Assembly: GCF_024700885.2 (NCBI RefSeq)
Contig: NZ_CP117016.1
DNA: 64,000 nucleotides
Strand: one strand, 5' to 3'
Origin: Escherichia coli
GTDB lineage: Bacteria; Pseudomonadota; Gammaproteobacteria; Enterobacterales; Enterobacteriaceae
In this document: piece after piece, positions 24,388 through 38,193 of the stretch
How the letters are laid out: each line of letters begins with the position of its first letter
Position numbering within the stretch: position 1 is the first letter of the stretch
Notes under the pieces: model-generated
Database searches by the model: none
The model's input: only the letters and a program-made list of their open reading frames with translations
Told to the model about the DNA's origin: nothing
Position numbers and translations under genes: made by a program

Positions 24388-25293
24388 ATGCGAGGAAAAA
24401 TACCTAAAACGGAGCTGCTGGTGACTTTTGAGGTCGTCGCACGTCATGAAAGTTATACCAGAGCGGCAGAGGAGTTAGCGTTAACCCAAAGTGCAGTATT
24501 CAGACAAGTGAGTGCGCTGGAGGAATTTTTACATACTCCGTTATTTTCACACTCTAAAAAACGTATTTTTCTTAATGATGCAGGGAAGTATTACCTGGGG
24601 ATAGTAAAAGAAACATTAAATAAGCTGGAACGCGATACCAATACCATTATGACCTGGCAGCCTACGGTTCAGGTTATTGAACTTGCCGTGAATCCTACGT
24701 TTAGTACCCACTGGTTAATCCCAAATTTACATGAATTCACAAAGTTACATCCCGATATTATTGTTAATATTCATTCTTTAGCTAATAACGGCGATTTTCT
24801 TAATCGGGAGTACGATGCTGTCATTATGCGCGAAAATTTTTGCGCGCCCTGGGCGGAAGTAGAATATCTCTTTGAAGAGGAGATTTTGCCGGTATGCAGC
24901 GGCAGTTTGCTTGCAATGTCCGATCAAAAACTGTCAGTGGCAGAACTGCTTACAGAGTTACCACTTCTGCATCAAAGTACCCGTATTACTGGCTGGGAAG
25001 AGTGGTTTGCCTTATCTGGCGTTAGCAGTCCGCTGGTCAACAACGGACCACGTTTCGATTTGCTTTCAATGCTGATTGCCGCCGTGCGCTCGAATCTCGG
25101 CGTGGCGCTGTTACCTCGTTTCGCTATTCAACATGATTTGGATAGTGGCGATATGGTGATCCCCTGTGATGTGCCTATTCGTACCGGTAATCGTTTTATT
25201 ATGACGTGGCAGGAAGAGAAGTCTGACTCACCGCACTTGCAGCAATTTCGTGAATGGTTGCTGGCGAAATCGGTCGTACCGCAGGAGATGTAA
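24388..25293 (+). CDS. LysR-family transcriptional regulator, 301 aa
   Basis: N-terminal HTH (ELALTQSAVFRQVSALEEFL) and LysR substrate-binding-like C-terminal domain; convergent with the distal end of the methylaspartate operon. Confidence 0.85.
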   Translation: MRGKIPKTELLVTFEVVARHESYTRAAEELALTQSAVFRQVSALEEFLHTPLFSHSKKRIFLNDAGKYYLGIVKETLNKLERDTNTIMTWQPTVQVIELAVNPTFSTHWLIPNLHEFTKLHPDIIVNIHSLANNGDFLNREYDAVIMRENFCAPWAEVEYLFEEEILPVCSGSLLAMSDQKLSVAELLTELPLLHQSTRITGWEEWFALSGVSSPLVNNGPRFDLLSMLIAAVRSNLGVALLPRFAIQHDLDSGDMVIPCDVPIRTGNRFIMTWQEEKSDSPHLQQFREWLLAKSVVPQEM

Positions 25294-25326
25294 AACCTGC
25301 GCCTGGCGGGATGCCAGACGCAGTTA

Positions 25327-25929
25327 TTACCAGTCGATACCCGGCTGGGCCTGAATGCCGTTATCAAAAGCATGTTTGACGGGGCGGATTTCGCTTACCG
25401 TATCCGCCATTTTTAATATCTGACTGTGGCAACCGCGTCCGGTGACAATGACACTTTGTTGTGCCGGGCGGTTTTGCAGAGAAGCGATCACTTCTTCGGT
25501 GTCCAGATAATGGTAAGCCAGCATATAGGTCAGCTCATCAAGCACCACTAAGTCGTAACGCTTGTCAGCCAGCATCCGTTTGCTTTCCGACCAGACCTCT
25601 TTCGCCGCGTCGATATCCGCTTGCCGGTTCTGTGTCTCCCAGGTAAAACCGGTTCCCATAATATGAAACTCAACCCCCAGCGGCTGGAGAAGGTTGTATT
25701 CACCGTTGTCCCATTGCCCCTTGATGTACTGCGCAACCCCCACCGTTTTGCCATGACCCACCGCGCGCGTCACAGTACCAAACGCGGCAGTGGATTTCCC
25801 TTTGCCGTTGCCGGTGAAAACAATCAAGATCCCTTTTTTCTCTATCGCCGCCGCGACGCGCGTATCGACCTGTTCCTTCAATTTCTGCTGGCGCTGCACA
25901 TGCCGTTCAGTTGAAATTCGCGCTTCCAT
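25327..25929 (-). CDS. ATP:cob(I)alamin adenosyltransferase (CobA/BtuR family paralog), 200 aa
   Basis: Strong resemblance to E. coli BtuR as I recall it (IIVFTGNGKGKTTAAFG P-loop, VVLDELTY, VITGRG, SELRPVKHAF motifs); last gene of the minus-strand operon. Confidence 0.85.
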   Translation of the reverse strand: MEARISTERHVQRQQKLKEQVDTRVAAAIEKKGILIVFTGNGKGKSTAAFGTVTRAVGHGKTVGVAQYIKGQWDNGEYNLLQPLGVEFHIMGTGFTWETQNRQADIDAAKEVWSESKRMLADKRYDLVVLDELTYMLAYHYLDTEEVIASLQNRPAQQSVIVTGRGCHSQILKMADTVSEIRPVKHAFDNGIQAQPGIDW

Positions 25930-25938
25930 TCATTTTCC

Positions 25939-27591
25939 TTAATGTCCCGCAGGGCAACTGGCGCAGCGGTGTTGCTGCTCAAACTGACTAAAGAAATTAT
26001 TGCCTTTATCATCTACCAGGATGAATGCGGGTAAATTTTCCACTTCCATCATCCACACCGCTTCCATACCCAGCTCCGGGTATTCCAGGCAACGCAGACT
26101 TTTGACATATTCTTGCGCCAGTAACGCAGCTGCACCGCCAATACTTCCCAGATTGAAGCCGCCATGTTTGTGACAGGCATCGGTGACCTGCTGGCTGCGG
26201 TTACCTTTCGATAACATCACCAGACTGCCGCCAGCCGCCTGGAAGGTATCGACATAACCGTCCATTCGTCCACCCGTGGTTGGACCCAGTGAACCGCAGG
26301 CCATGTTCTCCGGTGTTTTCGCCGGGCCAGCGTAATAGACAATATGATGCTTCAGGTAATCCGGCATCGATTCGCCGCTATCCAGCCGCGCTTTTATTTT
26401 GGCATGGGCGATATCGCGCGCCACTACGATGGGACCACTTAACGACACGCGGGTGCCTACCGGTAATCTGGCGAGATCCTGCATCACGTCACGCAACGGA
26501 CGGTTTAGATCCAGCTGTACATGTTGCGCGTGATTTTCTTCCCGCAGTGAGGCTGGAATATATTGCCCCGGATTGTGTTCGAGTTTTTCCAGCCAGATAC
26601 CGTGTTTGTTAATTTTTGCTTTGATATTGCGATCGGCAGAACAGGAGAGCGCCATAGCTATCGGGCAAGAGCCACCGTGACGCGGCAGACGAATGACGCG
26701 AATATCATGAGCGAAATATTTACCCCCAAATTGCGCACCAATACCAAATTGCTGACTGGCGTTGAGCAACGCTTTTTCCAACTCAATATCACGGAATGCT
26801 TGTCCCTGCTCGTTTCCGCTGGTGGGCAAATTGTCGTAATATTTCGTTGAGGCCAGCTTGGCAACTTTTAAGGTTTGATCGGCTGAAAGCCCTCCGACGA
26901 CAAAGGCGATGTGATAAGGCGGGCAGGCAGCGGTGCCCAGCGATTTCATTTTTTCGATTAAAAATGCGGTCAGTTTTTCTGGTTGCAATAGGGATTTTGT
27001 TTCCTGATAAAGCGCGGCTTTATTGGCAGAGCCCCCCCCTTTATTAATACAGAGAAAATGGTACTCATCACCAGCGACGGCGCTGATATCAATCTGCGCC
27101 GGTAGATTGGTTTGCGTATTGACTTCGGTATACATATCCAGTGGCGCATTTTGTGAAAAGCGCAGATTATTTTCCTGAAAAGTGGTGTAAATGCCTTTGC
27201 TTAAGGCTTCGGCGTCGTTACCTCCGGTCCATATCTGTTGCCCTTTACTGGCAACAATAGTTGCGGTGCCGGTATCCTGACAGTTGGGTAATACCCCTTT
27301 TGCTGAGACTTCAGCATTACGTAATAACTGCAACGCAACGTATTTATCATTACTGCTGGCCTGCGGATCGTTAAGAATGCTGGCGACCTGTTGCAAATGA
27401 GCGGAACGTAAGAAAAAAGAGGCTTCATAAAATGCCTGCCGGGCAAGCAGCGTTAATGCTTCAGGAGCGATTTTTATCACTTCTTCGCCGTCTAATTCCG
27501 TTACTGTAATATGTTGATCGCTAATTAATGTATATTCTGTACCGTCTTTATTTTGTAGATACGGTTCTTGCCAGATAAATGGTTTGGACAT
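25939..27591 (-). CDS. fumD: Class I (FumA/FumB-like) fumarate hydratase family protein, probable mesaconase, 550 aa
   Basis: FumA-sized single polypeptide of the Fe-S hydro-lyase family; location in the glutamate mutase/methylaspartase cluster corresponds to the mesaconase/fumarase FumD described for E. coli O157:H7 (from memory). Confidence 0.8.
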
Positions 27592-27698: not shown

Positions 27699-28979
27699 TC
27701 AGGGCAGAGCAACGTTCGATTCATTGGGTTTTAATGCTTTACCCCGACAACCCTCGCCGAAATGTTCGCCTTCCCACCGACTCACCAACGCAGCGCCCAT
27801 TGCGTTGCTCATGACGTTTGTCGCGGAACGCCCCATATCAAGGAACGGATCAACGCCCATCAGCAAGATCAGCCCCGCTTCCGGAATATTGAACTGGTTG
27901 AGCGTGGCGGCGATAACCACCATTGAGGCGCGTGGTACGCCAGCCATTCCTTTCGAGGTCAACATCAGGATCAACAGCATGGTGATTTGCTCACCGATGG
28001 ATAAATGGATATTGCAGGCCTGGGCGATGAAAACTGTGGCGAAGGAGCAGTAGGCCATTGATCCAACGAGATTAAATGAGTAGCCAATGGGTAAGACAAA
28101 GCTGGCAATTTTGGGGGAAACGCCAAATTGCTCCAGTTTTTCAAGCGTTCCCGGAAAAGCAGCTTCAGAACTGGATGTGGTAAATGCCAGCAGGGCGGGT
28201 TCCGAAAGGGCACGGGTCAGGCGTCTGATGCAGGGGCCGACATAAACGATGGCCAGACCGATAAGCAGCACCCAAAGTAACAACATGGTGAAATAAAATT
28301 CACCCATAAAGATCCCGGCGCTCACCATAACTGCCAGTCCTCGTTCAGCAATCAATGCTGAAATAGCGGCGAATACGGTCAGGGGAGCGAAGAGCATGAC
28401 GTAGCCAGTGAGCTTTAACATGGCATGTGCCAGCGAATCTAAGGCGTGAACGATGGCGCTGCCTTTCTCACCAATCGCCGTCAGGCTACAGCCGAGGAAA
28501 ATTGAGAACACCACGATTTGCAAAATTTCATTGTGCGCCATGGCATCGACAATGCTGGTGGGGAAAGCATGCGAAATAAATACTTTTAGCGTAAAGGGTT
28601 CTGACGCGACCACTCCGGTGGTTTCGGCACCGTGTGCAACAAAATTAATTCCTGTGCCTGGCATGAAGAAATTTACCGTTATCAAGCCTAAGGCAATTGA
28701 CAGCAATGAGGCGCAAATAAATAAAAAGAGTGTTTTAGAAAAAATACGACCAAGGGCTTTGGCATCGCCCATTTTAGCAATACCTACCACCAGGGTAGAG
28801 ACCACTAACGGAGCGATAATCATTTTTATCAGTCGTAAGAAAATCGTCGTGAATATCGATATTTCTTGCGCATAGAGTTTTGCTGTTTCCGGTGAAGCAG
28901 TGTTATTGATCACTACGCCGATAATCATTCCAAGTACCAGCGCCAAAAGAATCATCGTGGTTAAACTTATTTTCTTCAT
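27699..28979 (-). CDS. Dicarboxylate/amino acid:cation symporter (DAACS, GltP/DctA-like) family transporter, about 426 aa
   Basis: Multi-pass hydrophobic ORF with the family-typical N-terminus; start placed at MKKISL (ATG at 28979), preceded by GGAGGA 7 nt upstream; the ORF-track start at 29000 is a GTG. Confidence 0.8.
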   Translation of the reverse strand: MKKISLTTMILLALVLGMIIGVVINNTASPETAKLYAQEISIFTTIFLRLIKMIIAPLVVSTLVVGIAKMGDAKALGRIFSKTLFLFICASLLSIALGLITVNFFMPGTGINFVAHGAETTGVVASEPFTLKVFISHAFPTSIVDAMAHNEILQIVVFSIFLGCSLTAIGEKGSAIVHALDSLAHAMLKLTGYVMLFAPLTVFAAISALIAERGLAVMVSAGIFMGEFYFTMLLLWVLLIGLAIVYVGPCIRRLTRALSEPALLAFTTSSSEAAFPGTLEKLEQFGVSPKIASFVLPIGYSFNLVGSMAYCSFATVFIAQACNIHLSIGEQITMLLILMLTSKGMAGVPRASMVVIAATLNQFNIPEAGLILLMGVDPFLDMGRSATNVMSNAMGAALVSRWEGEHFGEGCRGKALKPNESNVALP

Positions 28980-29139: not shown

Positions 29140-29457
29140 TTACAAATCGAAACTCATATTTAATAAAGGTGCATGTTGCTGTGCACCATAGACATCATTG
29201 TCACCTACATTCCCGGAGATAATATCTCGTGGCATGACGATTTTTACTGCGTTAGAAGGATCAAACCAGACAATACGATGAATAAAGTCAGGTTCAACAT
29301 GATATAAGCGCGCGATCAGTTCTGGGGTTAATTGCCCTGATGATTTAACTCGCTCATAGTTTTCTTTGGTTTTAAATAAAATATCTAAAACCAGTTCGTA
29401 AGGTCCGGCATTTTTCGAACGAATGACTTGCGCCAGTGAGACAATTGACTGTTTCAT
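29140..29457 (-). CDS. DUF4387-like small protein, 105 aa
   Basis: Small soluble ORF whose start overlaps the stop of the upstream DUF1446-like gene by 4 nt; family assignment from recollection of the DUF1446/DUF4387 pair. Confidence 0.6.
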   Translation of the reverse strand: MKQSIVSLAQVIRSKNAGPYELVLDILFKTKENYERVKSSGQLTPELIARLYHVEPDFIHRIVWFDPSNAVKIVMPRDIISGNVGDNDVYGAQQHAPLLNMSFDL

Positions 29458-30824
29458 GCCTGAACTCCTTCTGGCGTCACCTGTTCAATATGGAAATCAA
29501 AACGCAGAGCGTCGTTGGCTTCAATCAGGTGATATATGGAAAATTCGTATACCGGCCCGCCCTGAATATCAGAAGGGGAGAACGGGAATGCCAGGTTGCC
29601 TGCGGTAGCGATGCGGTTTTCATAGCCGTAGTGCAGCATAGTAGAGCGCACCAGCGAGCAAACGCTATTGGCAATATCCTGGGTCGGTGCAACTACATCA
29701 AGGACAATCCCCAGCTCATGCCCGGCAGTTTGCATCGGTTCATGGTCGCCCATCACCCCGTTTTTGCCGTACAGGTGGAAATTGATGCGAATGCTGTCAT
29801 CGTCGAGCGACAGGTTACGCGAAACGCTGGTTTTGACTTCATCGATGATTTTATCGATCCCGGCGATCATGATCGGGTCGCGCGTTCCGGCGATGGTCAG
29901 ACAGCGGAAGCCCACCCGTCGCGCACCTTCCAGTTTCAGGGCATACGGCGTTTCTTCATGCTTAGAACCGCTGACGTACACTTCGCCGTCATTGACCGCT
30001 TTAAATGTGCAGCCTTTCAGGTTCAACACGCCGCCAGGTCCTGGCAGGAAGTAGGGATCGGATTTCTCATACAGTGTGTGTGCAGCTGCTGACGTTTCGG
30101 TAAATTTACGCTTCGGATTAAATGTCTTCAGCGTAAAGCCGTTGTCATCAATGATGCCCATCGCACAGTCAGAGCCTGAGCCGGGCGTTGCGGCGATTGC
30201 CGCGCATTCAAGGATTTTCCCACAATGCAGCGCCAGACCTTCATCAAAGCCTTGCATGATCGGTAGCGCAGCAAAGCAGGCCGGGTCGTAAGCGCGCCCG
30301 CCCAGCACCACTTGCGCGCCTTCTTTCAGCGCCTGCTGGAAGGGTTCGATGCCCATTTGCGCGACGATATACGTACTTTCGTCAATCGCGTCGTGGGTTA
30401 ACGGCGGGACAAAATCCAGCGCCGTGATTTTGCCGTTATCCAGCGCCTGGTGGACGATGGCTTTGTCAACGTCTGCCGGGATCAGCGCCATCGAGAACGA
30501 GAGGTGCTCTTCCCGGGCAATCTCATGAATTATTTCTCGGCACCACTCCAGGTGTGGAGCGGCACCAGAACCGCCGGCCGTTCCGATCACCACCGGTATA
30601 TTATTTTGCACGCCTGCGGTGATCATATAGCGCAGATCGCGCTTGACCCCTGCGCGATCGGTAAACGGTTTGCCCGCCCCGAGGTAGTGGGGGCCAGGAT
30701 CGGAAGAGCCAGCATCAACGGCGATCAGATCGGGCGATTCTGCCATCGCTTTGCGGAAGCTCTCCTCCGGGAATCCATACCCGAGGATTGCCGTAGGCGA
30801 TAAGACTTTAAAAGAACGAGCCAT
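29454..30824 (-). CDS. AtuA-like (DUF1446) family protein, 456 aa
   Basis: About 450-aa soluble ORF resembling acyclic-terpene-utilisation AtuA-like proteins (my recollection); 3 nt downstream of the methylaspartase gene in the same operon. Confidence 0.6.
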   Translation of the reverse strand: MARSFKVLSPTAILGYGFPEESFRKAMAESPDLIAVDAGSSDPGPHYLGAGKPFTDRAGVKRDLRYMITAGVQNNIPVVIGTAGGSGAAPHLEWCREIIHEIAREEHLSFSMALIPADVDKAIVHQALDNGKITALDFVPPLTHDAIDESTYIVAQMGIEPFQQALKEGAQVVLGGRAYDPACFAALPIMQGFDEGLALHCGKILECAAIAATPGSGSDCAMGIIDDNGFTLKTFNPKRKFTETSAAAHTLYEKSDPYFLPGPGGVLNLKGCTFKAVNDGEVYVSGSKHEETPYALKLEGARRVGFRCLTIAGTRDPIMIAGIDKIIDEVKTSVSRNLSLDDDSIRINFHLYGKNGVMGDHEPMQTAGHELGIVLDVVAPTQDIANSVCSLVRSTMLHYGYENRIATAGNLAFPFSPSDIQGGPVYEFSIYHLIEANDALRFDFHIEQVTPEGVQA

Positions 30825-30827
30825 TTG

Positions 30828-32069
30828 TTAATCCTTAGCCTGCAACAGCGCGATAGTACGATTCATTTCGTTGAAGACGATATCGAGGCCTTCGTCAAAG
30901 CCCATCCCTGGCTTTACCAGCATACGCATAGGGCGAGCGGCAAGGGCGATGTGGACACAGGTGCGGGCACTGACATCAGTTTCATTGCAGGTGCCGCCCT
31001 GGTACGCTTCCATGCTGTGGCTATTGCAGTAAAGAACCGCATCGACGATGTTGTGAATACTGCCCAGATCCGGGGTTTTGATTTGCACCATGTGACAACT
31101 GGCGGCATCAGTAAAATCAACAATATCCTGGTAGGTGTTACACCATTCATCGGCCACAATTTTCACGCCGGAACCGAGGCGCGTCAGCTCTTTGGTAATC
31201 GCGGTCAGCAGGCGAATTTGATCGGGCTTGTTACCGGCATCGACCGGACCTTCAATGTAGAGCGGCAGGCCTTGCGCTTCTTTTTCCAGGCTGGCGATGT
31301 ATTGCGCACAGCGAAGCGGATCCATATCGAAGATCAGACCGATAGTGCCGTATACATCGATGTGCAGGGTAGGGTGGTAGCGTGCGCTGGTGCGCTTGCT
31401 CAGAATACGATCCGACAGCCAGCGGACATATTCGCGCAGTTTTTCACCTTTAAAGCCCAGTTTCTCTTCGACGTTATTAATCAGTGCATGGGGCAGCACG
31501 TCGATGCCCTTAAGGATCATCTTATCGACGGCGATATATCGATCGTCGCCGCTCTGACCAAATAATGGAATGGATTCCGCCACGCGTGGCAACTGCCATT
31601 CATCACAGACCACTTCAGTTTTCAGACGGCCGGTTGCCAGCGCGGTAGCATCAAGCAGCGCCTGTGATAATCCGTAGCGCACGGCGGTATGCAGCAAGTT
31701 GCCGTCAATACGCAATTTGTCGAAGAAACGGGCATTCGGCAGGAAAGCATCTACATCGCGGCCTACCAGTAATGGCTTGATATGGTCGTTGAGGAACGGA
31801 ATAAAGTGCTCTGCGAGGAACAGTGGATCGCGACCACCTGCCCCGGAATACTGTACGGCAGCACAGTCACCTACGGCGACCGCGCCGTTTTCCAGAATCA
31901 ACTGTACCGATACGCACTCCCCGGCCTGACGTACGGCGTTAAACCCCTGTGTTACTGGCTCCCCGGTATAAAAAAAGCCGTCGTGACCCGCTCCGTTTTT
32001 TATCGCCTGCTGGTCATCGAAATAGAATGAGGAGTAGCCAGCGGTGAACAGGGCCTGTTTTATTTTCAT
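30828..32069 (-). CDS. 3-methylaspartate ammonia-lyase (methylaspartase, enolase superfamily), 413 aa
   Basis: N-terminus MKIKQALFTAGYSSFYFDDQQAIKNGAGHDGFFYTGEPVT and length are typical of methylaspartase; start overlaps the glmE stop. Confidence 0.9.
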   Translation of the reverse strand: MKIKQALFTAGYSSFYFDDQQAIKNGAGHDGFFYTGEPVTQGFNAVRQAGECVSVQLILENGAVAVGDCAAVQYSGAGGRDPLFLAEHFIPFLNDHIKPLLVGRDVDAFLPNARFFDKLRIDGNLLHTAVRYGLSQALLDATALATGRLKTEVVCDEWQLPRVAESIPLFGQSGDDRYIAVDKMILKGIDVLPHALINNVEEKLGFKGEKLREYVRWLSDRILSKRTSARYHPTLHIDVYGTIGLIFDMDPLRCAQYIASLEKEAQGLPLYIEGPVDAGNKPDQIRLLTAITKELTRLGSGVKIVADEWCNTYQDIVDFTDAASCHMVQIKTPDLGSIHNIVDAVLYCNSHSMEAYQGGTCNETDVSARTCVHIALAARPMRMLVKPGMGFDEGLDIVFNEMNRTIALLQAKD

Positions 32070-33514
32070 TATGGTCTTCCTATTAATTTACTGTGGGATA
32101 CAGCATTGATGTCATCTACAACCATCTGGAATGTCGGTTGGCGTCCTTCAAAGCGTGCGCGTTCCGCAACGTAATCGTGGTGGAGGTCGAGAATATCTTT
32201 TGGCAATGGAACGGCTCCGGCTTCCAGTACGCGTATCGCGCCGGTGTTGTCACGGACCGGAAGAATTTTGCCCGCGTTGCAGGCGGCTGGCGCAAACGGC
32301 ACATCCAGTACGCCCGCTTCAAATGCCAGCACCGTACCGCGCGCAATATCACCATTACCCAGTTCGAACACTTTATTCAGTACCGCGCGAACCTCGCTCT
32401 TAATCAGTTCAATTTCCAGTTCAACCGCAGGGCAAGGCGGGAATTTCTGCTCGTTGACCATGTTGAGCATCTGGCGGGAGGCTTTCAGCCCCTGAATGTT
32501 GGCAGCGGCAGTCGGGATGCCCCAGGCTTCGTGCGGACTTTTGGTGATGACTTTGGTGGCACCAGACATCCCCGCGACGGCTGCACCCCAGGAGATAATG
32601 GCGAACGCTTTCGATTCGTCTTCCGGAAAGCCGCCCATCCACTGGTGAAACACGGTACTTAATTCATAGTCGGTATAGCCATAGCTCTGAAAGTATTCGT
32701 GTGCAAGTTCACGCAGAGACTGGATCGCCGCGACATCCTGCGTCAGGCTGCCGACCTGTCCATAACCAACGGTGATAGATTTCACACCCTGTTCCAGCGC
32801 CAGTAATCCTTCGATTATCGCGATAGAGTGCGAGATAAACGGCGGGATCAGCGTACCCGTTAGTGGGCCAAACGGTTCGCGGTTGATGCGGATCCCGTGT
32901 TCTTCATACATCCCCATTAAACGATCGCAGTACTGCCAGTCGCGGATCGATTTTTCCAGCGTTACGCGCTTGGCATACGGAATATTGTAGGAAATGCCGC
33001 CGCCTTCATAACTGGTAAAGCCGCTGGCCATCGAGATTTCAGCCAGCAGACGCGCATCTGGCGTGCCGTGGCGGATCTGTAGCGGTTTTTGCAAAGTTTC
33101 GGTGAGGCGACGGCAAGCTGCGACGCCGTGGTTAACTACCGGTAAACCGTTCAGTTTAGAGGTTCCGGCTTCGATGGATTTTTTAATCCCTACAGCCGCT
33201 TCTTCGTACCGATTCAGACGGGTATATGCATCGATGGTGCTCGGCAGCAGATCGCACTCTTCTTGTGGTGTTTTCAGTAGTTCGATGTGTTCGTCCATCA
33301 GCGCCACGCCTGCGCGCGGTTGGCTAAGAGTTTTACCTTCCTTGTCTGCTTTCAGCAGGGCAAGAGAGAAGCGTTTATGCTCAGGAATGGTTTGTTGGTA
33401 TTTAACGCCATCTTCAAAGTTTTCAACATCCTTGCCGGTTTCCCAGGTTTTCAGTACCTGTTGCCGCTCGGTCATGAATTCGTCATGGGTTAATTTCTTA
33501 TTTCGAAGTTCCAT
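32069..33514 (-). CDS. glmE: Glutamate mutase epsilon (catalytic, E) subunit, 481 aa
   Basis: Length and sequence consistent with methylaspartate mutase E chain; sits between glmL and the methylaspartase gene as in clostridial glmS-glmL-glmE clusters. Confidence 0.88.
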   Translation of the reverse strand: MELRNKKLTHDEFMTERQQVLKTWETGKDVENFEDGVKYQQTIPEHKRFSLALLKADKEGKTLSQPRAGVALMDEHIELLKTPQEECDLLPSTIDAYTRLNRYEEAAVGIKKSIEAGTSKLNGLPVVNHGVAACRRLTETLQKPLQIRHGTPDARLLAEISMASGFTSYEGGGISYNIPYAKRVTLEKSIRDWQYCDRLMGMYEEHGIRINREPFGPLTGTLIPPFISHSIAIIEGLLALEQGVKSITVGYGQVGSLTQDVAAIQSLRELAHEYFQSYGYTDYELSTVFHQWMGGFPEDESKAFAIISWGAAVAGMSGATKVITKSPHEAWGIPTAAANIQGLKASRQMLNMVNEQKFPPCPAVELEIELIKSEVRAVLNKVFELGNGDIARGTVLAFEAGVLDVPFAPAACNAGKILPVRDNTGAIRVLEAGAVPLPKDILDLHHDYVAERARFEGRQPTFQMVVDDINAVSHSKLIGRP

Positions 33515-33749
33515 TGATTGCAGCCTTAATTGTTATAGGGTTAAGCATTGAATACTGGTGCGCGCGGCGGCCAGTGGATCGACTCTGGCGACGTTTGCCA
33601 GCAGTGGTAATAGCCCCCGGGAATCGCGGTAATATTCAAATTCGGTCGGTAAGAGAATGCGTTTACCGTCGTCGTTTAACTCGCGGTATTTCAACCAGTG
33701 ATGCATATCGAACTGACTGGCACGCGAGAGCCATCCGCCGGAACCAACG

Positions 33750-33757
33750 ACTTTACG
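33750..33757. repeat. Target-site duplication (left copy) ACTTTACG
   Basis: 8-bp direct repeat immediately flanking the IS26 left inverted repeat. Confidence 0.85.
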
Positions 33758-34577
33758 GGCACTGTTGCAAATAGTCGGTGGTGATAAACTTATCATCCCC
33801 TTTTGCTGATGGAGCTGCACATGAACCCATTCAAAGGCCGGCATTTTCAGCGTGACATCATTCTGTGGGCCGTACGCTGGTACTGCAAATACGGCATCAG
33901 TTACCGTGAGCTGCAGGAGATGCTGGCTGAACGCGGAGTGAATGTCGATCACTCCACGATTTACCGCTGGGTTCAGCGTTATGCGCCTGAAATGGAAAAA
34001 CGGCTGCGCTGGTACTGGCGTAACCCTTCCGATCTTTGCCCGTGGCACATGGATGAAACCTACGTGAAGGTCAATGGCCGCTGGGCGTATCTGTACCGGG
34101 CCGTCGACAGCCGGGGCCGCACTGTCGATTTTTATCTCTCCTCCCGTCGTAACAGCAAAGCTGCATACCGGTTTCTGGGTAAAATCCTCAACAACGTGAA
34201 GAAGTGGCAGATCCCGCGATTCATCAACACGGATAAAGCGCCCGCCTATGGTCGCGCGCTTGCTCTGCTCAAACGCGAAGGCCGGTGCCCGTCTGACGTT
34301 GAACACCGACAGATTAAGTACCGGAACAACGTGATTGAATGCGATCATGGCAAACTGAAACGGATAATCGGCGCCACGCTGGGATTTAAATCCATGAAGA
34401 CGGCTTACGCCACCATCAAAGGTATTGAGGTGATGCGTGCACTACGCAAAGGCCAGGCCTCAGCATTTTATTATGGTGATCCCCTGGGCGAAATGCGCCT
34501 GGTAAGCAGAGTTTTTGAAATGTAAGGCCTTTGAATAAGACAAAAGGCTGCCTCATCGCTAACTTTGCAACAGTGCC
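33758..34577 (+). mobile_element. IS26 (IS6 family), complete 820-bp copy
   Basis: 14-bp terminal inverted repeats GGCACTGTTGCAAA (33758-33771) and TTTGCAACAGTGCC (34564-34577); internal transposase matches IS26 Tnp as I recall; flanked by 8-bp direct repeats. Confidence 0.93.
33821..34525 (+). CDS. tnpA: IS26 transposase Tnp26 (DDE), 234 aa
   Basis: MNPFKGRHFQRDIILWAVRWYCKYGISYRELQEMLAERGVNVDHSTIYRWVQRYAPEMEK is the canonical IS26 transposase N-terminus (from memory); start placed at the ATG 18 nt inside the ORF-track start. Confidence 0.93.
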   Translation: MNPFKGRHFQRDIILWAVRWYCKYGISYRELQEMLAERGVNVDHSTIYRWVQRYAPEMEKRLRWYWRNPSDLCPWHMDETYVKVNGRWAYLYRAVDSRGRTVDFYLSSRRNSKAAYRFLGKILNNVKKWQIPRFINTDKAPAYGRALALLKREGRCPSDVEHRQIKYRNNVIECDHGKLKRIIGATLGFKSMKTAYATIKGIEVMRALRKGQASAFYYGDPLGEMRLVSRVFEM

Positions 34578-34585
34578 ACTTTACG
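34578..34585. repeat. Target-site duplication (right copy) ACTTTACG
   Basis: 8-bp direct repeat immediately flanking the IS26 right inverted repeat. Confidence 0.85.
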
Positions 34586-35748
34586 CACGGTTGTCAGGTC
34601 ACGTCCCATCTGTAAATCGACATTGCCGACGCAGGTGCAGACCTCTTTTTTGGTGCCCGCATGTCTTTCGGTGGCATAACCCACACACAGTCCGGCCAGG
34701 ACGGTATCGAAATATTTTTCTTCTGCATTCGCGGGTAAGTAGTCGGGATGAGCGACTAGATGGCGGAGGTAATGATAAAAAGCGTCCAGCTGTGCGGGTT
34801 GCTGAGCAAAATTCACATTGACTAACTCTTTCGCACTTTCACCAACCACCATTGCCGAGACGCGCATTCCCAGATCGCCTTCCACCGTCCGTTTCACGAA
34901 GGGTTCCGGTACGCCGTGTAAAACGGTGTCGGGCGAGAGCGTGTTGGCACAGGCGGAATAGACATCGGTGGTTGCGCCACCCATGTCGATCAGCATGAAC
35001 TCTTTCCAGCTGTGATCGACGTTACTGATTGCCTTAACCAGTTCAAAGACCGTCCATGGTGTCGGCATTGGTTCTTCGCCTGTTTTATCAACAATGACAT
35101 CCAACCCTTTCCCTTTAACGATGCGTTTAAGGAATATGTCGCAGATAGCCTGGCGTGCAGCTAAAGGGTTCGGATGGTCAAGATCGGGCAGAACGTTGTC
35201 GACGATGGTCAGGTCTTTATGCCCGAGGATCTCCTGCACCTCGTCCTGAATATCCCGGTTTCCGGCATAAATAATGGCGCAGTCGAGTTTGGATTCTGCC
35301 AACACACGGGCGTTATTCAGTCCGTAGCTTTCTTCTCCGCCATCGGTGCCGCCGGTGAACAAGAGAATATCGGGCTGCGTTTCTTCCAGTGCCTGGATAT
35401 CACGGCGGTTCAGCTTGTAGGCGTAATATTGCGCAATTTTAGCACCCGCAGAGTGAGCGGTTACTTTCGCGGTTTCCAGGGTGATAGAAGGCACCAATCC
35501 CATTGCGGCAACCGCCAGCCCACCTTTGGCAGAGGAGGAATACTTCAATGCAACCTCACCACTGTTTAACAGGGGGAGGGCATTATCTACGTTTAACACC
35601 TGGTCCAGGCTGGAGAAAAACCCCTTCGCCAGATGATGGGTGGTGGTTGGGGTCAGAACGTGGTTAACCAACGTTAACGCGTCCCCCTCCCGGGTGAAGA
35701 GGGCTGCTTTGGTCCACGTCGAACCAATATCGACAGAGACGATTTGCA

Positions 35749-36198
35749 TCAGATTGCCTCTTCAAGAATGCGAGTATCAACGTCATGACGTTGGTTGATA
35801 TCGTGGGCCATCAGCTGACAAACATCTTCTAAGTCATGACTTGGGGAAAAGACGCGATCAAATCCCATCTCTTTGAACTTGGTTTCCACGTCAGCGAAGT
35901 CATGTTTTCCGACCACCAGGTTACCGCCCACATAGAGCAGGATGTTACCCAGCCCACGCTCGATGCAGCGTTCGCGCATGCCCAGACAATCGATATCGCC
36001 ATGCCCATAGATAGAGGAGACGACAATCGCGTCAGCACCAGTTTCAATGGCAGCATCAATATATTCGTCCTGGCTGACCATTACGCCCAGATTAATAACT
36101 CTGAAGTCATGGTTGCTAAAAACGCGGTCCAGAACTTTATTGCCTACTGCATGGCAGTCCGCGCCAATAACGCCAATCACAAGTGTTGCTTTCTTCAT
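35749..36198 (-). CDS. glmS: Glutamate mutase sigma (B12-binding, S) subunit, about 149 aa
   Basis: [24 protein letters not shown] contains the DxHxxG cobalamin-binding signature; start at ATG 36198 preceded by AGGA; stop overlaps the glmL start (ATGA). Confidence 0.88.
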
Positions 36199-36745: not shown

Positions 36746-37168
36746 TTAATCAGTATAATCCTCATACAATAGGTCAGGATTTACTGAACCGTTAACGGGG
36801 ATTTGGTGTTGAAATTTAGAAATGGCGGAGTCAATTAATGAAGACAATATCGGAAAAATGACAGTGTCAGAATTAATTTCAATTAATCCTTCTCGTTGTT
36901 GACCAAAAAAGATATTTATCTTGATTTCATTTGTACTACGGCAATCAATATGCAGTAATTTTTGATCGCTGAGATTTTCTGTTTCATAAATGTTTTTGGC
37001 GATAGTCGGATGTATTGATGCCAGACATCTGCTCAGATAAGCCAGATCCTTTAGGGAACACCCCGCTGAGTAGAGGATGTCAGAGAATTTTTGTGTGTCA
37101 ACTGTTGTCTCTGAAGCGTATGTTGCATTGACAGGAAGGGTGTTGAAAGAGATTTGAGATGGGATCAT
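36746..37168 (-). CDS. Hypothetical protein, 140 aa, no recognisable family
   Basis: ORF in a markedly AT-rich block; co-directional with and 80 bp downstream of the 314-aa orphan ORF; coding status unverified. Confidence 0.45.
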   Translation of the reverse strand: MIPSQISFNTLPVNATYASETTVDTQKFSDILYSAGCSLKDLAYLSRCLASIHPTIAKNIYETENLSDQKLLHIDCRSTNEIKINIFFGQQREGLIEINSDTVIFPILSSLIDSAISKFQHQIPVNGSVNPDLLYEDYTD

Positions 37169-37248: not shown

Positions 37249-38193
37249 TTAAAGTATTTGATTGGCATCGGTTAACTGATCAATAACCAGTGCCAGATTG
37301 GTAAACATTTTGAAAAAGCGATACTGGCTCGGAATATCTCTTTCAAAGACGAAACATTCAATGTCATTGTTTGAAAAATAAAGGACTAGTGTTGCTGATT
37401 CGTCAGGAAAAATATGGAAATATATCTGGTTACCAGAAGGAGGATAGTCCAGATGAAGGGTATCTTTGCCCGTCACATACCTGTTGTGGTCGTGGATGCT
37501 GCGCTCACACTTCATCAGAGGTGTCATGATACTCATGTATTCATCTGATGTTAATATATTAAAATCACCATCCATTTTAAAGAAACGATAAAGTAACAGT
37601 ACATCCTCTTGCGTAACCGGTTCGTTTGTTTTTAGAGGGAAATAAGTGGGAACCAGAAGATGAGGTTCTAATCTATTTTGTTGAGCGCTATAACTAAATT
37701 TGAACATAAATTCCGGATCGCTCATTAATTGAGCGACATAATTATGCCTGGCTTCAAAAATTTTAACTTTTATCAGGTTAAATAAGTCTGTTTCGTTATC
37801 CTGTATTAAAAGACATTGGCCATAGCAGCCAGGCTTTTTTTCATTATAAGCAGAAACGGTTATTCTGTCAGGAGTGTCAACGTTATATCCAAAAGCCAGA
37901 TAGTGACCTTCCTCATCGAGATTTGTTTCCAGGTTATTTAAATTCATCACATGAAGTGTTTGCAATGCTGATTCAATGAGCTGTTGACTCTCTGAGGTAA
38001 ATGTTTCGCGCTGCGTTGTATAAAGTGTATCGATTCCAACGACTATCCGATGTGGGTCAAGGATGGCGGCAATCATCTTTATTACCTGCACAGTCATGGG
38101 TGATGTCATTGATTCTTTATCTGTTTTTAGAGGATCATTAGATGGCCAACCTGAGAAGCGATTGACAGCAGAACTGATATTATCAGGACTCAT
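37249..38193 (-). CDS. Hypothetical protein, 314 aa, no recognisable family
   Basis: Longest ORF in an AT-rich region with no competing frame; no signal peptide or transmembrane segment evident; no motif I can assign. Confidence 0.55.
   Translation of the reverse strand: MSPDNISSAVNRFSGWPSNDPLKTDKESMTSPMTVQVIKMIAAILDPHRIVVGIDTLYTTQRETFTSESQQLIESALQTLHVMNLNNLETNLDEEGHYLAFGYNVDTPDRITVSAYNEKKPGCYGQCLLIQDNETDLFNLIKVKIFEARHNYVAQLMSDPEFMFKFSYSAQQNRLEPHLLVPTYFPLKTNEPVTQEDVLLLYRFFKMDGDFNILTSDEYMSIMTPLMKCERSIHDHNRYVTGKDTLHLDYPPSGNQIYFHIFPDESATLVLYFSNNDIECFVFERDIPSQYRFFKMFTNLALVIDQLTDANQIL

Follow-up and report, generated by a model that had tools for sequence, protein, structure and literature searches.

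Two adjacent genes at positions 29,140 to 30,824 of the Escherichia coli DNA analyzed here (a stretch of 64,000 nucleotides, called the window below) very probably encode CmlA and CmlB, the subunits of a heteromeric, CoA- and acyl-carrier-protein-independent (S)-citramalate lyase that would catalyze the final reaction of the methylaspartate pathway, for which the same operon codes. Three points are established for this pair: it is orthologous to an enzyme of solved structure, that enzyme is a heteromer, and the gene order is conserved; it is also established that the solved orthologue binds citramalate or pyruvate along with an adenine nucleotide. What the DUF1446 plus DUF4387 pair does is already known, through PDB entries 9ERQ and 9EVF and a 2026 preprint, and it is Pfam, NCBIfam and RefSeq that lag behind.

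The gene pair and its operon

The genes of the operon all lie on the minus strand, in the order glmS, glmL, glmE, mal, cmlA, cmlB, a GltP/DctA-type symporter gene, fumD and cobA, and the cluster is located between sucD and cydA on the E. coli chromosome. The features, in window coordinates, are as follows.

35749-36198, minus strand: glmS, glutamate mutase subunit S, B12-binding (NF002612/TIGR01501, E=2e-75; start according to the RefSeq annotation of an identical locus)
34578-35749, minus strand: 5' part of glmL, a truncated mutase accessory protein (the TIGR01319 match covers only profile positions 1-386 of 456)
33758-34577, plus strand: IS26, 820 bp, which interrupts the operon and is not part of the enzyme system (its database matches carry the annotation IS26 family transposase)
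33533-33757, minus strand: 3' fragment of glmL, separated from the rest of the gene by IS26 (same sequence as the 3' end of the intact glmL of strain 1190)
32069-33514, minus strand: glmE, glutamate (methylaspartate) mutase subunit E (TIGR01503, E=2e-259)
30828-32069, minus strand: mal, methylaspartate ammonia-lyase, 413 aa (TIGR01502 equivalog, E=2.9e-163)
29454-30824, minus strand: cmlA, probable citramalate lyase large subunit (456-aa ORF; Pfam AtuA/DUF1446)
29140-29457, minus strand: cmlB, probable citramalate lyase small subunit (105-aa ORF; DUF4387; 84.6% identical to chain B of PDB 9ERQ/9EVF)
27699-28979, minus strand: gltP/dctA-like dicarboxylate/amino acid:cation symporter gene (NF002461/NF008440, E about 1e-90, under the equivalog cut-offs; RefSeq annotation)
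25939-27591, minus strand: fumD, class I fumarase/mesaconase, which would supply (S)-citramalate (NF011921 equivalog, 1280 bits)
25327-25929, minus strand: cobA/cobO, corrinoid adenosyltransferase (NF004637/TIGR00708)
25297-25323, minus strand: terminator-like hairpin 3' of cobA, the probable operon end (11-bp stem with 8 GC pairs; top site of the scan; a consensus match only)
24388-25293, plus strand: divergent LysR-type regulator gene beyond the cobA hairpin (ORF; RefSeq annotation)

A reading made earlier from the sequence alone had described ORFs of 456 and 105 aa, overlapping by ATGA and beginning 3 nt after the methylaspartase gene; these coordinates were confirmed, the minus strand being the one detail omitted. 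The overlap occupies positions 29454-29457, where ATGA on the minus strand combines the TGA stop of cmlA with the ATG start of cmlB, and the 3-nt gap lies between the mal stop (30828-30830) and the cmlA ATG (30824-30822). Shine-Dalgarno-like sequences, AAGGA for cmlA and GAAGGAG for cmlB, are each found 7 nt 5' of the ATG. Given this overlap and the strength of the Shine-Dalgarno sequences, CmlA and CmlB would be expected to be made in roughly equimolar amounts by coupled translation. The flanking assignments of the sequence-only reading were also correct, with methylaspartase upstream (TIGR01502, E=3e-163) and a DctA/GltP-type symporter downstream.

The membership in the DUF1446/AtuA and DUF4387 families that it had proposed was borne out by profile searches. 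CmlA matches Pfam AtuA/DUF1446 (PF07287, E=6.3e-19, 68 bits) over residues 63-393 only, and CmlB matches DUF4387 (PF14330, E=2.9e-39) over residues 6-101, while an NCBIfam profile search returned no model matching CmlA or CmlB. The RefSeq names are "acyclic terpene utilization AtuA family protein" for CmlA and "DUF4387 domain-containing protein" for CmlB. Both are real genes rather than chance ORFs, as homologues 57-92% identical are found across about ten phyla. Within the species, several complete E. coli genomes are 100% identical over the 2-kb stretch around the pair, which occurs in 1125 of 5426; the methylaspartate cluster is carried by about a fifth of complete E. coli genomes, O157:H7 among them. 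FumD of E. coli O157:H7 has been characterized as a mesaconase (Kronen & Berg 2015, PMC4682846).

At the cobA end of the cluster, a LysR-type gene is the neighbor in 21 of the 22 enterobacterial loci with sufficient flank. A promoter scan of the operon gave fewer sites than shuffled sequence, and no promoter is claimed. As for the hypothetical ORFs upstream, the 314-aa ORF had no Pfam match, and neither ORF was matched by PADLOC.

Orthology to a citramalate lyase of known structure

A PDB sequence search returned one full-length match for each protein, namely chain A (for CmlA) and chain B (for CmlB) of 9ERQ and 9EVF, entries released in October 2025. The depositors named these chains "Citramalate lyase, subunit A (cmlA)" and "subunit B (cmlB)", beside the old AtuA and DUF4387 names. 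CmlA aligns with chain A over 456 of 456 residues at 92.3% identity (421/456, E=1e-292), and CmlB with chain B over 104 of 105 residues at 84.6% identity (88/104, E=5e-57). The solved proteins and the window pair have the same lengths (456 + 105 aa), gene order and predicted fold, and differ by only 35 substitutions in CmlA and 16 in CmlB; none of these 51 falls at the 158 + 17 family-invariant positions. The predicted structure of CmlA agrees with the large-subunit fold in 9ERQ and 9EVF; a Foldseek search of the PDB with CmlA found no relative at E<0.001 except 9EVF, and no solved structure beyond these two entries is similar to the protein as a whole. Chain A is 100% identical to a protein of Klebsiella michiganensis DSM 25444, and the K. 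michiganensis locus (L002) has the gene order mal-cmlA-cmlB-gltP-fumD-cobA, as in the window, whose operon differs in carrying IS26 in glmL.

Both PDB entries hold A and B chains, and the enzyme is therefore a heteromer. The ligands are AMPPNP and citramalate in 9ERQ, and ADP and pyruvate in 9EVF. Functional evidence comes from a 2026 preprint (10.64898/2026.01.16.699985), in which cmlAB of Raoultella planticola served in vivo to turn citramalate, itself derived from mesaconate, into pyruvate and acetate. In that work, an acetyl-CoA auxotroph required the cmlAB plasmid to grow on mesaconate, label reached acetyl-CoA, and cmlAB worked in a heterologous host without glutamate mutase. A literature search turned up the 2015 FumD paper (PMC4682846) and this preprint but no primary biochemical paper on CmlAB, so that the assignment draws on the depositor names and titles together with this one preprint in which the enzyme is used.

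These results bear directly on the functions that had been suggested for the pair. Of the several guesses in the sequence-only reading, action on citramalate was the right one, the orthologue in 9ERQ and 9EVF being named citramalate lyase and having citramalate and pyruvate bound. Action on mesaconate, metabolite repair and enzyme maturation gained no support from an orthologue crystallized with citramalate or pyruvate. Its description of a family of unknown function is outdated, given a heteromer 92% and 85% identical that is named citramalate lyase CmlA/CmlB in the PDB and the use of cmlAB in the 2026 preprint. Assignment to a known enzyme family with a known substrate, which it had named as the outcome that would speak against it, came through the PDB but not through Pfam, NCBIfam or RefSeq, which keep the old names.

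More generally, the pair might act elsewhere in the pathway, as an alternative mesaconate or methylaspartate enzyme, in metabolite repair, or in maturation or reactivation of glutamate mutase. The fixed place after mal is compatible with such a role, as is the legacy name "3-methylaspartate ammonia-lyase" on some homologues (P0002, P0060, P0072). However, the same operon contains dedicated Mal, FumD and GlmL genes, the solved orthologue was crystallized with citramalate and pyruvate rather than with mesaconate or methylaspartate, and cmlAB is functional in a host that lacks glutamate mutase (10.64898/2026.01.16.699985). Furthermore, Kronen and Berg called the "3-methylaspartate ammonia-lyase" label unexplained (PMC4682846). 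A role elsewhere in the pathway is very improbable and has already been largely refuted.

The Pfam and RefSeq name "acyclic terpene utilization AtuA family" raises the different idea that the pair acts on HIHG-CoA or HMG-CoA instead of citramalate. AtuA has been tentatively assigned as an HIHG-CoA:acetate lyase (PMC4847356), formally the same chemistry in that acetate is released from a tertiary 3-hydroxy acid; no demonstration with the AtuA protein itself was found in the literature. AtuA and CmlAB share the Pfam families PF07287 and PF14330, but AtuA proper has both parts fused in one polypeptide of about 600-615 aa (615 aa in Thauera), is encoded in atu clusters and has a CoA ester as substrate, and the fused homologues are only about 35-41% identical to CmlA. 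For a protein of 456 aa, the Pfam match covers only part of the sequence and scores low (residues 63-393, 68 bits), the operon contains no atu genes such as that for geranyl-CoA carboxylase, and the orthologue binds its ligands, citramalate and pyruvate, as free acids. An identity as AtuA in the strict sense was rejected, the window having two separate genes, for 456 and 105 aa, whose neighbors are glm, mal, fumD, gltP and cobA, with no geranyl-CoA carboxylase gene among them. An AtuA-type substrate for the window pair is exceedingly unlikely.

Conservation of the locus

The gene neighborhood was surveyed with one genome per species, giving 80 loci with CmlA homologues at 57-92% identity. These loci come from Proteobacteria, Riflebacteria, Aminicenantes/Acidobacteriota, Spirochaetes, Lentisphaerae, Bacillota, Chloroflexi, Planctomycetes and Myxococcota. 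Genes were called by tblastn with the window proteins and with E. coli CitCDEFXG, and the denominators below are the loci with sufficient flank. The conserved two-gene pair seen by the sequence-only reading holds without exception, cmlB following directly 3' of cmlA in 77 of 77 loci. The junction is a 4-nt overlap in 40 of 78 loci, and the spacing lies between -10 and +30 nt in 73 of 78. The pathway role that had been argued from fixed position is likewise upheld: mal lies directly 5' of cmlA in 67 of 72 loci, glmE is nearby in 58 of 64 and glmS in 56 of 64, and a FumD-like gene is nearby in 38 of 62. In the alignment of 27 CmlA sequences, 158 columns are invariant.

Five long-flank loci without mal (three from Shewanella, one each from Accumulibacter and Desulfospira) have neighbors that are uninformative on function. 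Around these mal-less loci are found hrpA, a protease gene, fadE, RND efflux genes, malQ and a histidine kinase gene. The whole family comprises 2388 clusters at 50% identity (E<=1e-3). Homologues at 40-44% identity keep the gene pair, lack the mal linkage and have uninformative neighbors, and all 17 homologues of at least 560 aa, one of them fungal, have a DUF4387 (CmlB-like) domain fused C-terminally to the DUF1446 (CmlA-like) part. Most of the approximately 2,400 DUF1446 plus DUF4387 clusters, from bacteria and fungi, occur in contexts unrelated to glutamate. Because distant homologues lose the mal linkage, transfer of function is safe only among the orthologues linked to mal, a group that clearly includes the window proteins.

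Relationship to other citramalate-cleaving enzymes

The citramalate lyase of Clostridium tetanomorphum (Buckel & Bobi 1976, as cited in PMC4682846) is, like the citrate lyase of E. coli, an enzyme of the CitDEF type with CitC/X/G, and it catalyzes the same overall reaction as CmlAB, (S)-citramalate to pyruvate and acetate. In clostridia, genes of the CitDEF type are found alongside mal, glm and the mesaconase genes, and their product likewise acts at the end of the pathway (PMC4682846). There is, however, no sequence or fold relationship between the two enzymes: the CitDEF type has three subunits, including an acyl-carrier subunit with a phosphoribosyl-dephospho-CoA prosthetic group, and depends on activating enzymes. 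E. coli citrate lyase does not cleave citramalate (PMC4682846). An identity of the window pair as a CitDEF-type lyase was rejected on the basis of tblastn over the 80 loci and NCBIfam, there being no CitD/E/F homology and no CitC/X/G nearby. Within 10 kb on either side of cmlA, tblastn detected CitD, CitE or CitF at 0 of 80 loci, and none of the E. coli CitC/D/E/F/X/G queries gave a match at any of them. Since CitDEF-type genes are missing from the cmlAB loci and yet present in the clostridial clusters (PMC4682846), the two enzymes behave as alternative, non-homologous solutions for one pathway step, and CmlAB is a non-homologous replacement of the clostridial lyase.

A third route, by succinyl-CoA:citramalate CoA-transferase and citramalyl-CoA lyase, also converts citramalate to pyruvate and a C2 unit (PMC4682846), but it needs CoA activation, yields acetyl-CoA and uses enzymes unrelated to CmlAB. 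These enzymes are absent from most enterobacteria (PMC4682846). Membership in the isocitrate lyase/PEP mutase superfamily, which includes CoA-independent C-C lyases such as dimethylmalate lyase, was also considered and rejected, as CmlA does not have the TIM-barrel fold.

Predicted pathway and mechanism

In the pathway that the operon would encode, GlmSE, supported by B12, GlmL and CobA, would turn glutamate into methylaspartate, from which Mal would form mesaconate; FumD would then make (S)-citramalate from mesaconate, and CmlAB would cleave citramalate to pyruvate and acetate. Cleavage of acetate from a free carboxylic acid is chemically hard, and the classical lyases use a thioester. CmlAB requires no CoA, acyl-carrier subunit or CitC/X/G activating enzymes, and the bound nucleotide would presumably take part in catalysis. 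The most plausible route is that ATP would phosphorylate the C4 carboxylate of citramalate, with the acyl phosphate standing in for the thioester of the classical lyases; the acyl phosphate would then permit a retro-Claisen cleavage to pyruvate and either acetyl phosphate or acetate. Release of acetyl phosphate is argued against by the preprint, which names free acetate as the product and in which Acs is up-regulated in evolved strains (10.64898/2026.01.16.699985). Net hydrolysis of ATP is disfavored by reasoning from the energetics of a fermentation pathway. The AtuA reaction proposed in the literature (PMC4847356), in which acetate is likewise released from a tertiary 3-hydroxy acid, would fit a chemistry common to the family.

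The structure model of CmlA has three parts, with an N-terminal alpha/beta domain of approximately residues 1-215 followed by a beta-rich middle part. Residues 42-53 have the lowest model confidence and lie inside an invariant run (D37, G39, S40, D42-P45, Y47-G49, G51 and K52), a pattern that a mobile active-site lid would give. Further invariant residues of CmlA include H91, H200, K203, E206 and C207. In CmlB, the 17 invariant and mostly polar residues occur in RSKN (13-16) and DxYGAQQHxP (88-97), and their character suggests an active-site role for CmlB, not one as a mere scaffold.

A broader and more speculative proposal, which we consider rather unlikely, is that CmlAB represents, as its first member, a mechanistically new class of C-C lyases. 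On a remotely kinase-like domain, the leaving carboxymethyl group would be turned transiently by ATP into an acyl phosphate. Acetate might then leave as acetyl phosphate, conserving the ATP, or the phosphate might return to ADP, making ATP a catalytic cofactor, and such a release of acetate from tertiary 3-hydroxy acids would also be the chemistry of AtuA and of the approximately 2,400 DUF1446 plus DUF4387 clusters.

An IS26 insertion upstream of the pair

The claim of the sequence-only reading that the pair is embedded in a methylaspartate operon stands as far as gene order is concerned, but the operon is not intact, as IS26 (33758-34577) breaks glmL upstream. At the ends of the element are perfect 14-bp inverted repeats (GGCACTGTTGCAAA), and the 8-bp direct repeat (ACTTTACG) on either side of it represents the target duplication; it carries its transposase ORF at 33803-34525 and is oriented opposite to the operon. 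The intact glmL of strain 1190 encodes 462 aa. The IS26/glmL junction is found in 0 of 5426 complete E. coli genomes, and the insertion is therefore a recent, private event.

Because IS26 interrupts glmL upstream, expression of the operon in the strain from which the window comes appears doubtful. It is quite possible, though short of an even chance, that the genes are indeed cmlAB but that IS26 stops or strongly lowers transcription of glmE-mal-cmlAB-gltP-fumD-cobA, leaving the pair with no in vivo role here. Consistent with such silencing are the 820-bp element itself, with its 8-bp target duplication within glmL and its orientation against the operon, and the private nature of the junction. 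In addition, Kronen and Berg found no conditions for expression of the cluster in E. coli, and even an intact cluster was not inducible in E. coli ATCC 700728 (PMC4682846). On the other side, every downstream ORF is intact, with 100% identity over 2 kb to IS-free strains, and cmlA and cmlB show no decay. Outward hybrid promoters can arise at the ends of IS26, which also speaks against silencing.

Significance

A DUF1446 gene downstream of mal was already drawn for enterobacteria and Dictyoglomus in 2015 (Kronen & Berg, PMC4682846). Any novelty in the proposed new lyase class is limited to whatever the depositors of 9ERQ and 9EVF have yet to describe. The labels "AtuA family" and "DUF4387" persist in RefSeq, Pfam and NCBIfam, and some records have "methylaspartate ammonia-lyase"; as a result of these outdated labels on cmlAB, the final step is overlooked when the pathway is reconstructed and in metagenome studies. 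The adenine nucleotide in the CmlAB crystals is the remaining point of mechanistic interest, and an enzyme that needs neither CoA nor an acyl carrier is already in use in synthetic pathways. For the enterobacteria themselves, no classical citramalate lyase activity was detectable in organisms with the cluster, no citramalate lyase activity was found for the citrate lyase, isocitrate lyase or methylisocitrate lyase of E. coli, and the fate of citramalate was left open (PMC4682846). CmlAB fills this gap, and its assignment closes the question raised in 2015 as to what becomes of (S)-citramalate in those enterobacteria whose genomes contain the glutamate mutase/methylaspartase cluster.

Insertion of IS26 into glmL

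In the window, glmL of the methylaspartate operon is interrupted by an insertion sequence:

33758-34577, opposite to the operon direction: IS26, 820 bp, interrupting glmL

The ends of the element are perfect 14-bp terminal inverted repeats, and it is flanked by an 8-bp target-site duplication (ACTTTACG), with the repeats at 33750-33757 and 34578-34585. The IS26-glmL junction was found in none of the 5426 complete E. coli genomes searched, which makes the insertion a private and probably recent event. The insertion may silence glmE-mal-cmlAB-gltP-fumD-cobA.

Two hypothetical ORFs lie between glmS and cydA:

36746-37168, minus strand: 140-aa ORF, RefSeq "hypothetical protein"
37249-38193, minus strand: 314-aa ORF, RefSeq "hypothetical protein"

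PADLOC returned no match for either ORF, and a Pfam scan, run on the 314-aa ORF only, gave no significant match. Both ORFs likewise accompany the methylaspartate island in strain 1190, an E. coli with an intact glmL.

The CmlA protein and its relatives

The AlphaFold model of CmlA, the 456-aa member of the citramalate lyase pair, falls below a pLDDT of 50 only at residues 42-53 (window positions ~30666-30701, minus strand). This segment lies within an invariant run (D42 P43 G44 P45 Y47 L48 G49 G51 K52), and the combination of low pLDDT with invariance is the pattern that would be expected for a mobile catalytic lid.

The name "3-methylaspartate ammonia-lyase" still stands on some public records of CmlA homologues (P0002, P0060 and P0072), a mislabel already pointed out in 2015 by Kronen and Berg (PMC4682846). 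No current name in Pfam, NCBIfam or RefSeq reflects the citramalate lyase function.

Pairs of cmlAB genes with 57-67% identity also occur in Shewanella (loci L060, L072 and L076), Accumulibacter (L029) and Desulfospira (L064), where mal, glm and fumD are all absent within 10 kb and the surrounding genes have unrelated roles in housekeeping or efflux.

A metagenome model of colorectal cancer (PMC8748837) ranks a Bacteroidetes DUF1446 orthologous group among its most predictive functions, and places methylaspartate mutase and methylaspartase features there too. This ranking fits a joint scoring of the whole pathway, including the CmlAB lyase, in gut metagenomes.

A fused homologue was found in a fungal assembly (GCA_004117975.1):

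L086 7001-9630: fused DUF1446+DUF4387 gene, 608 aa, intron-containing

An acetate kinase gene (PF00871) lies ~7 kb from the fused gene, in this one case only; its proximity would be of interest should the family make acetyl phosphate.
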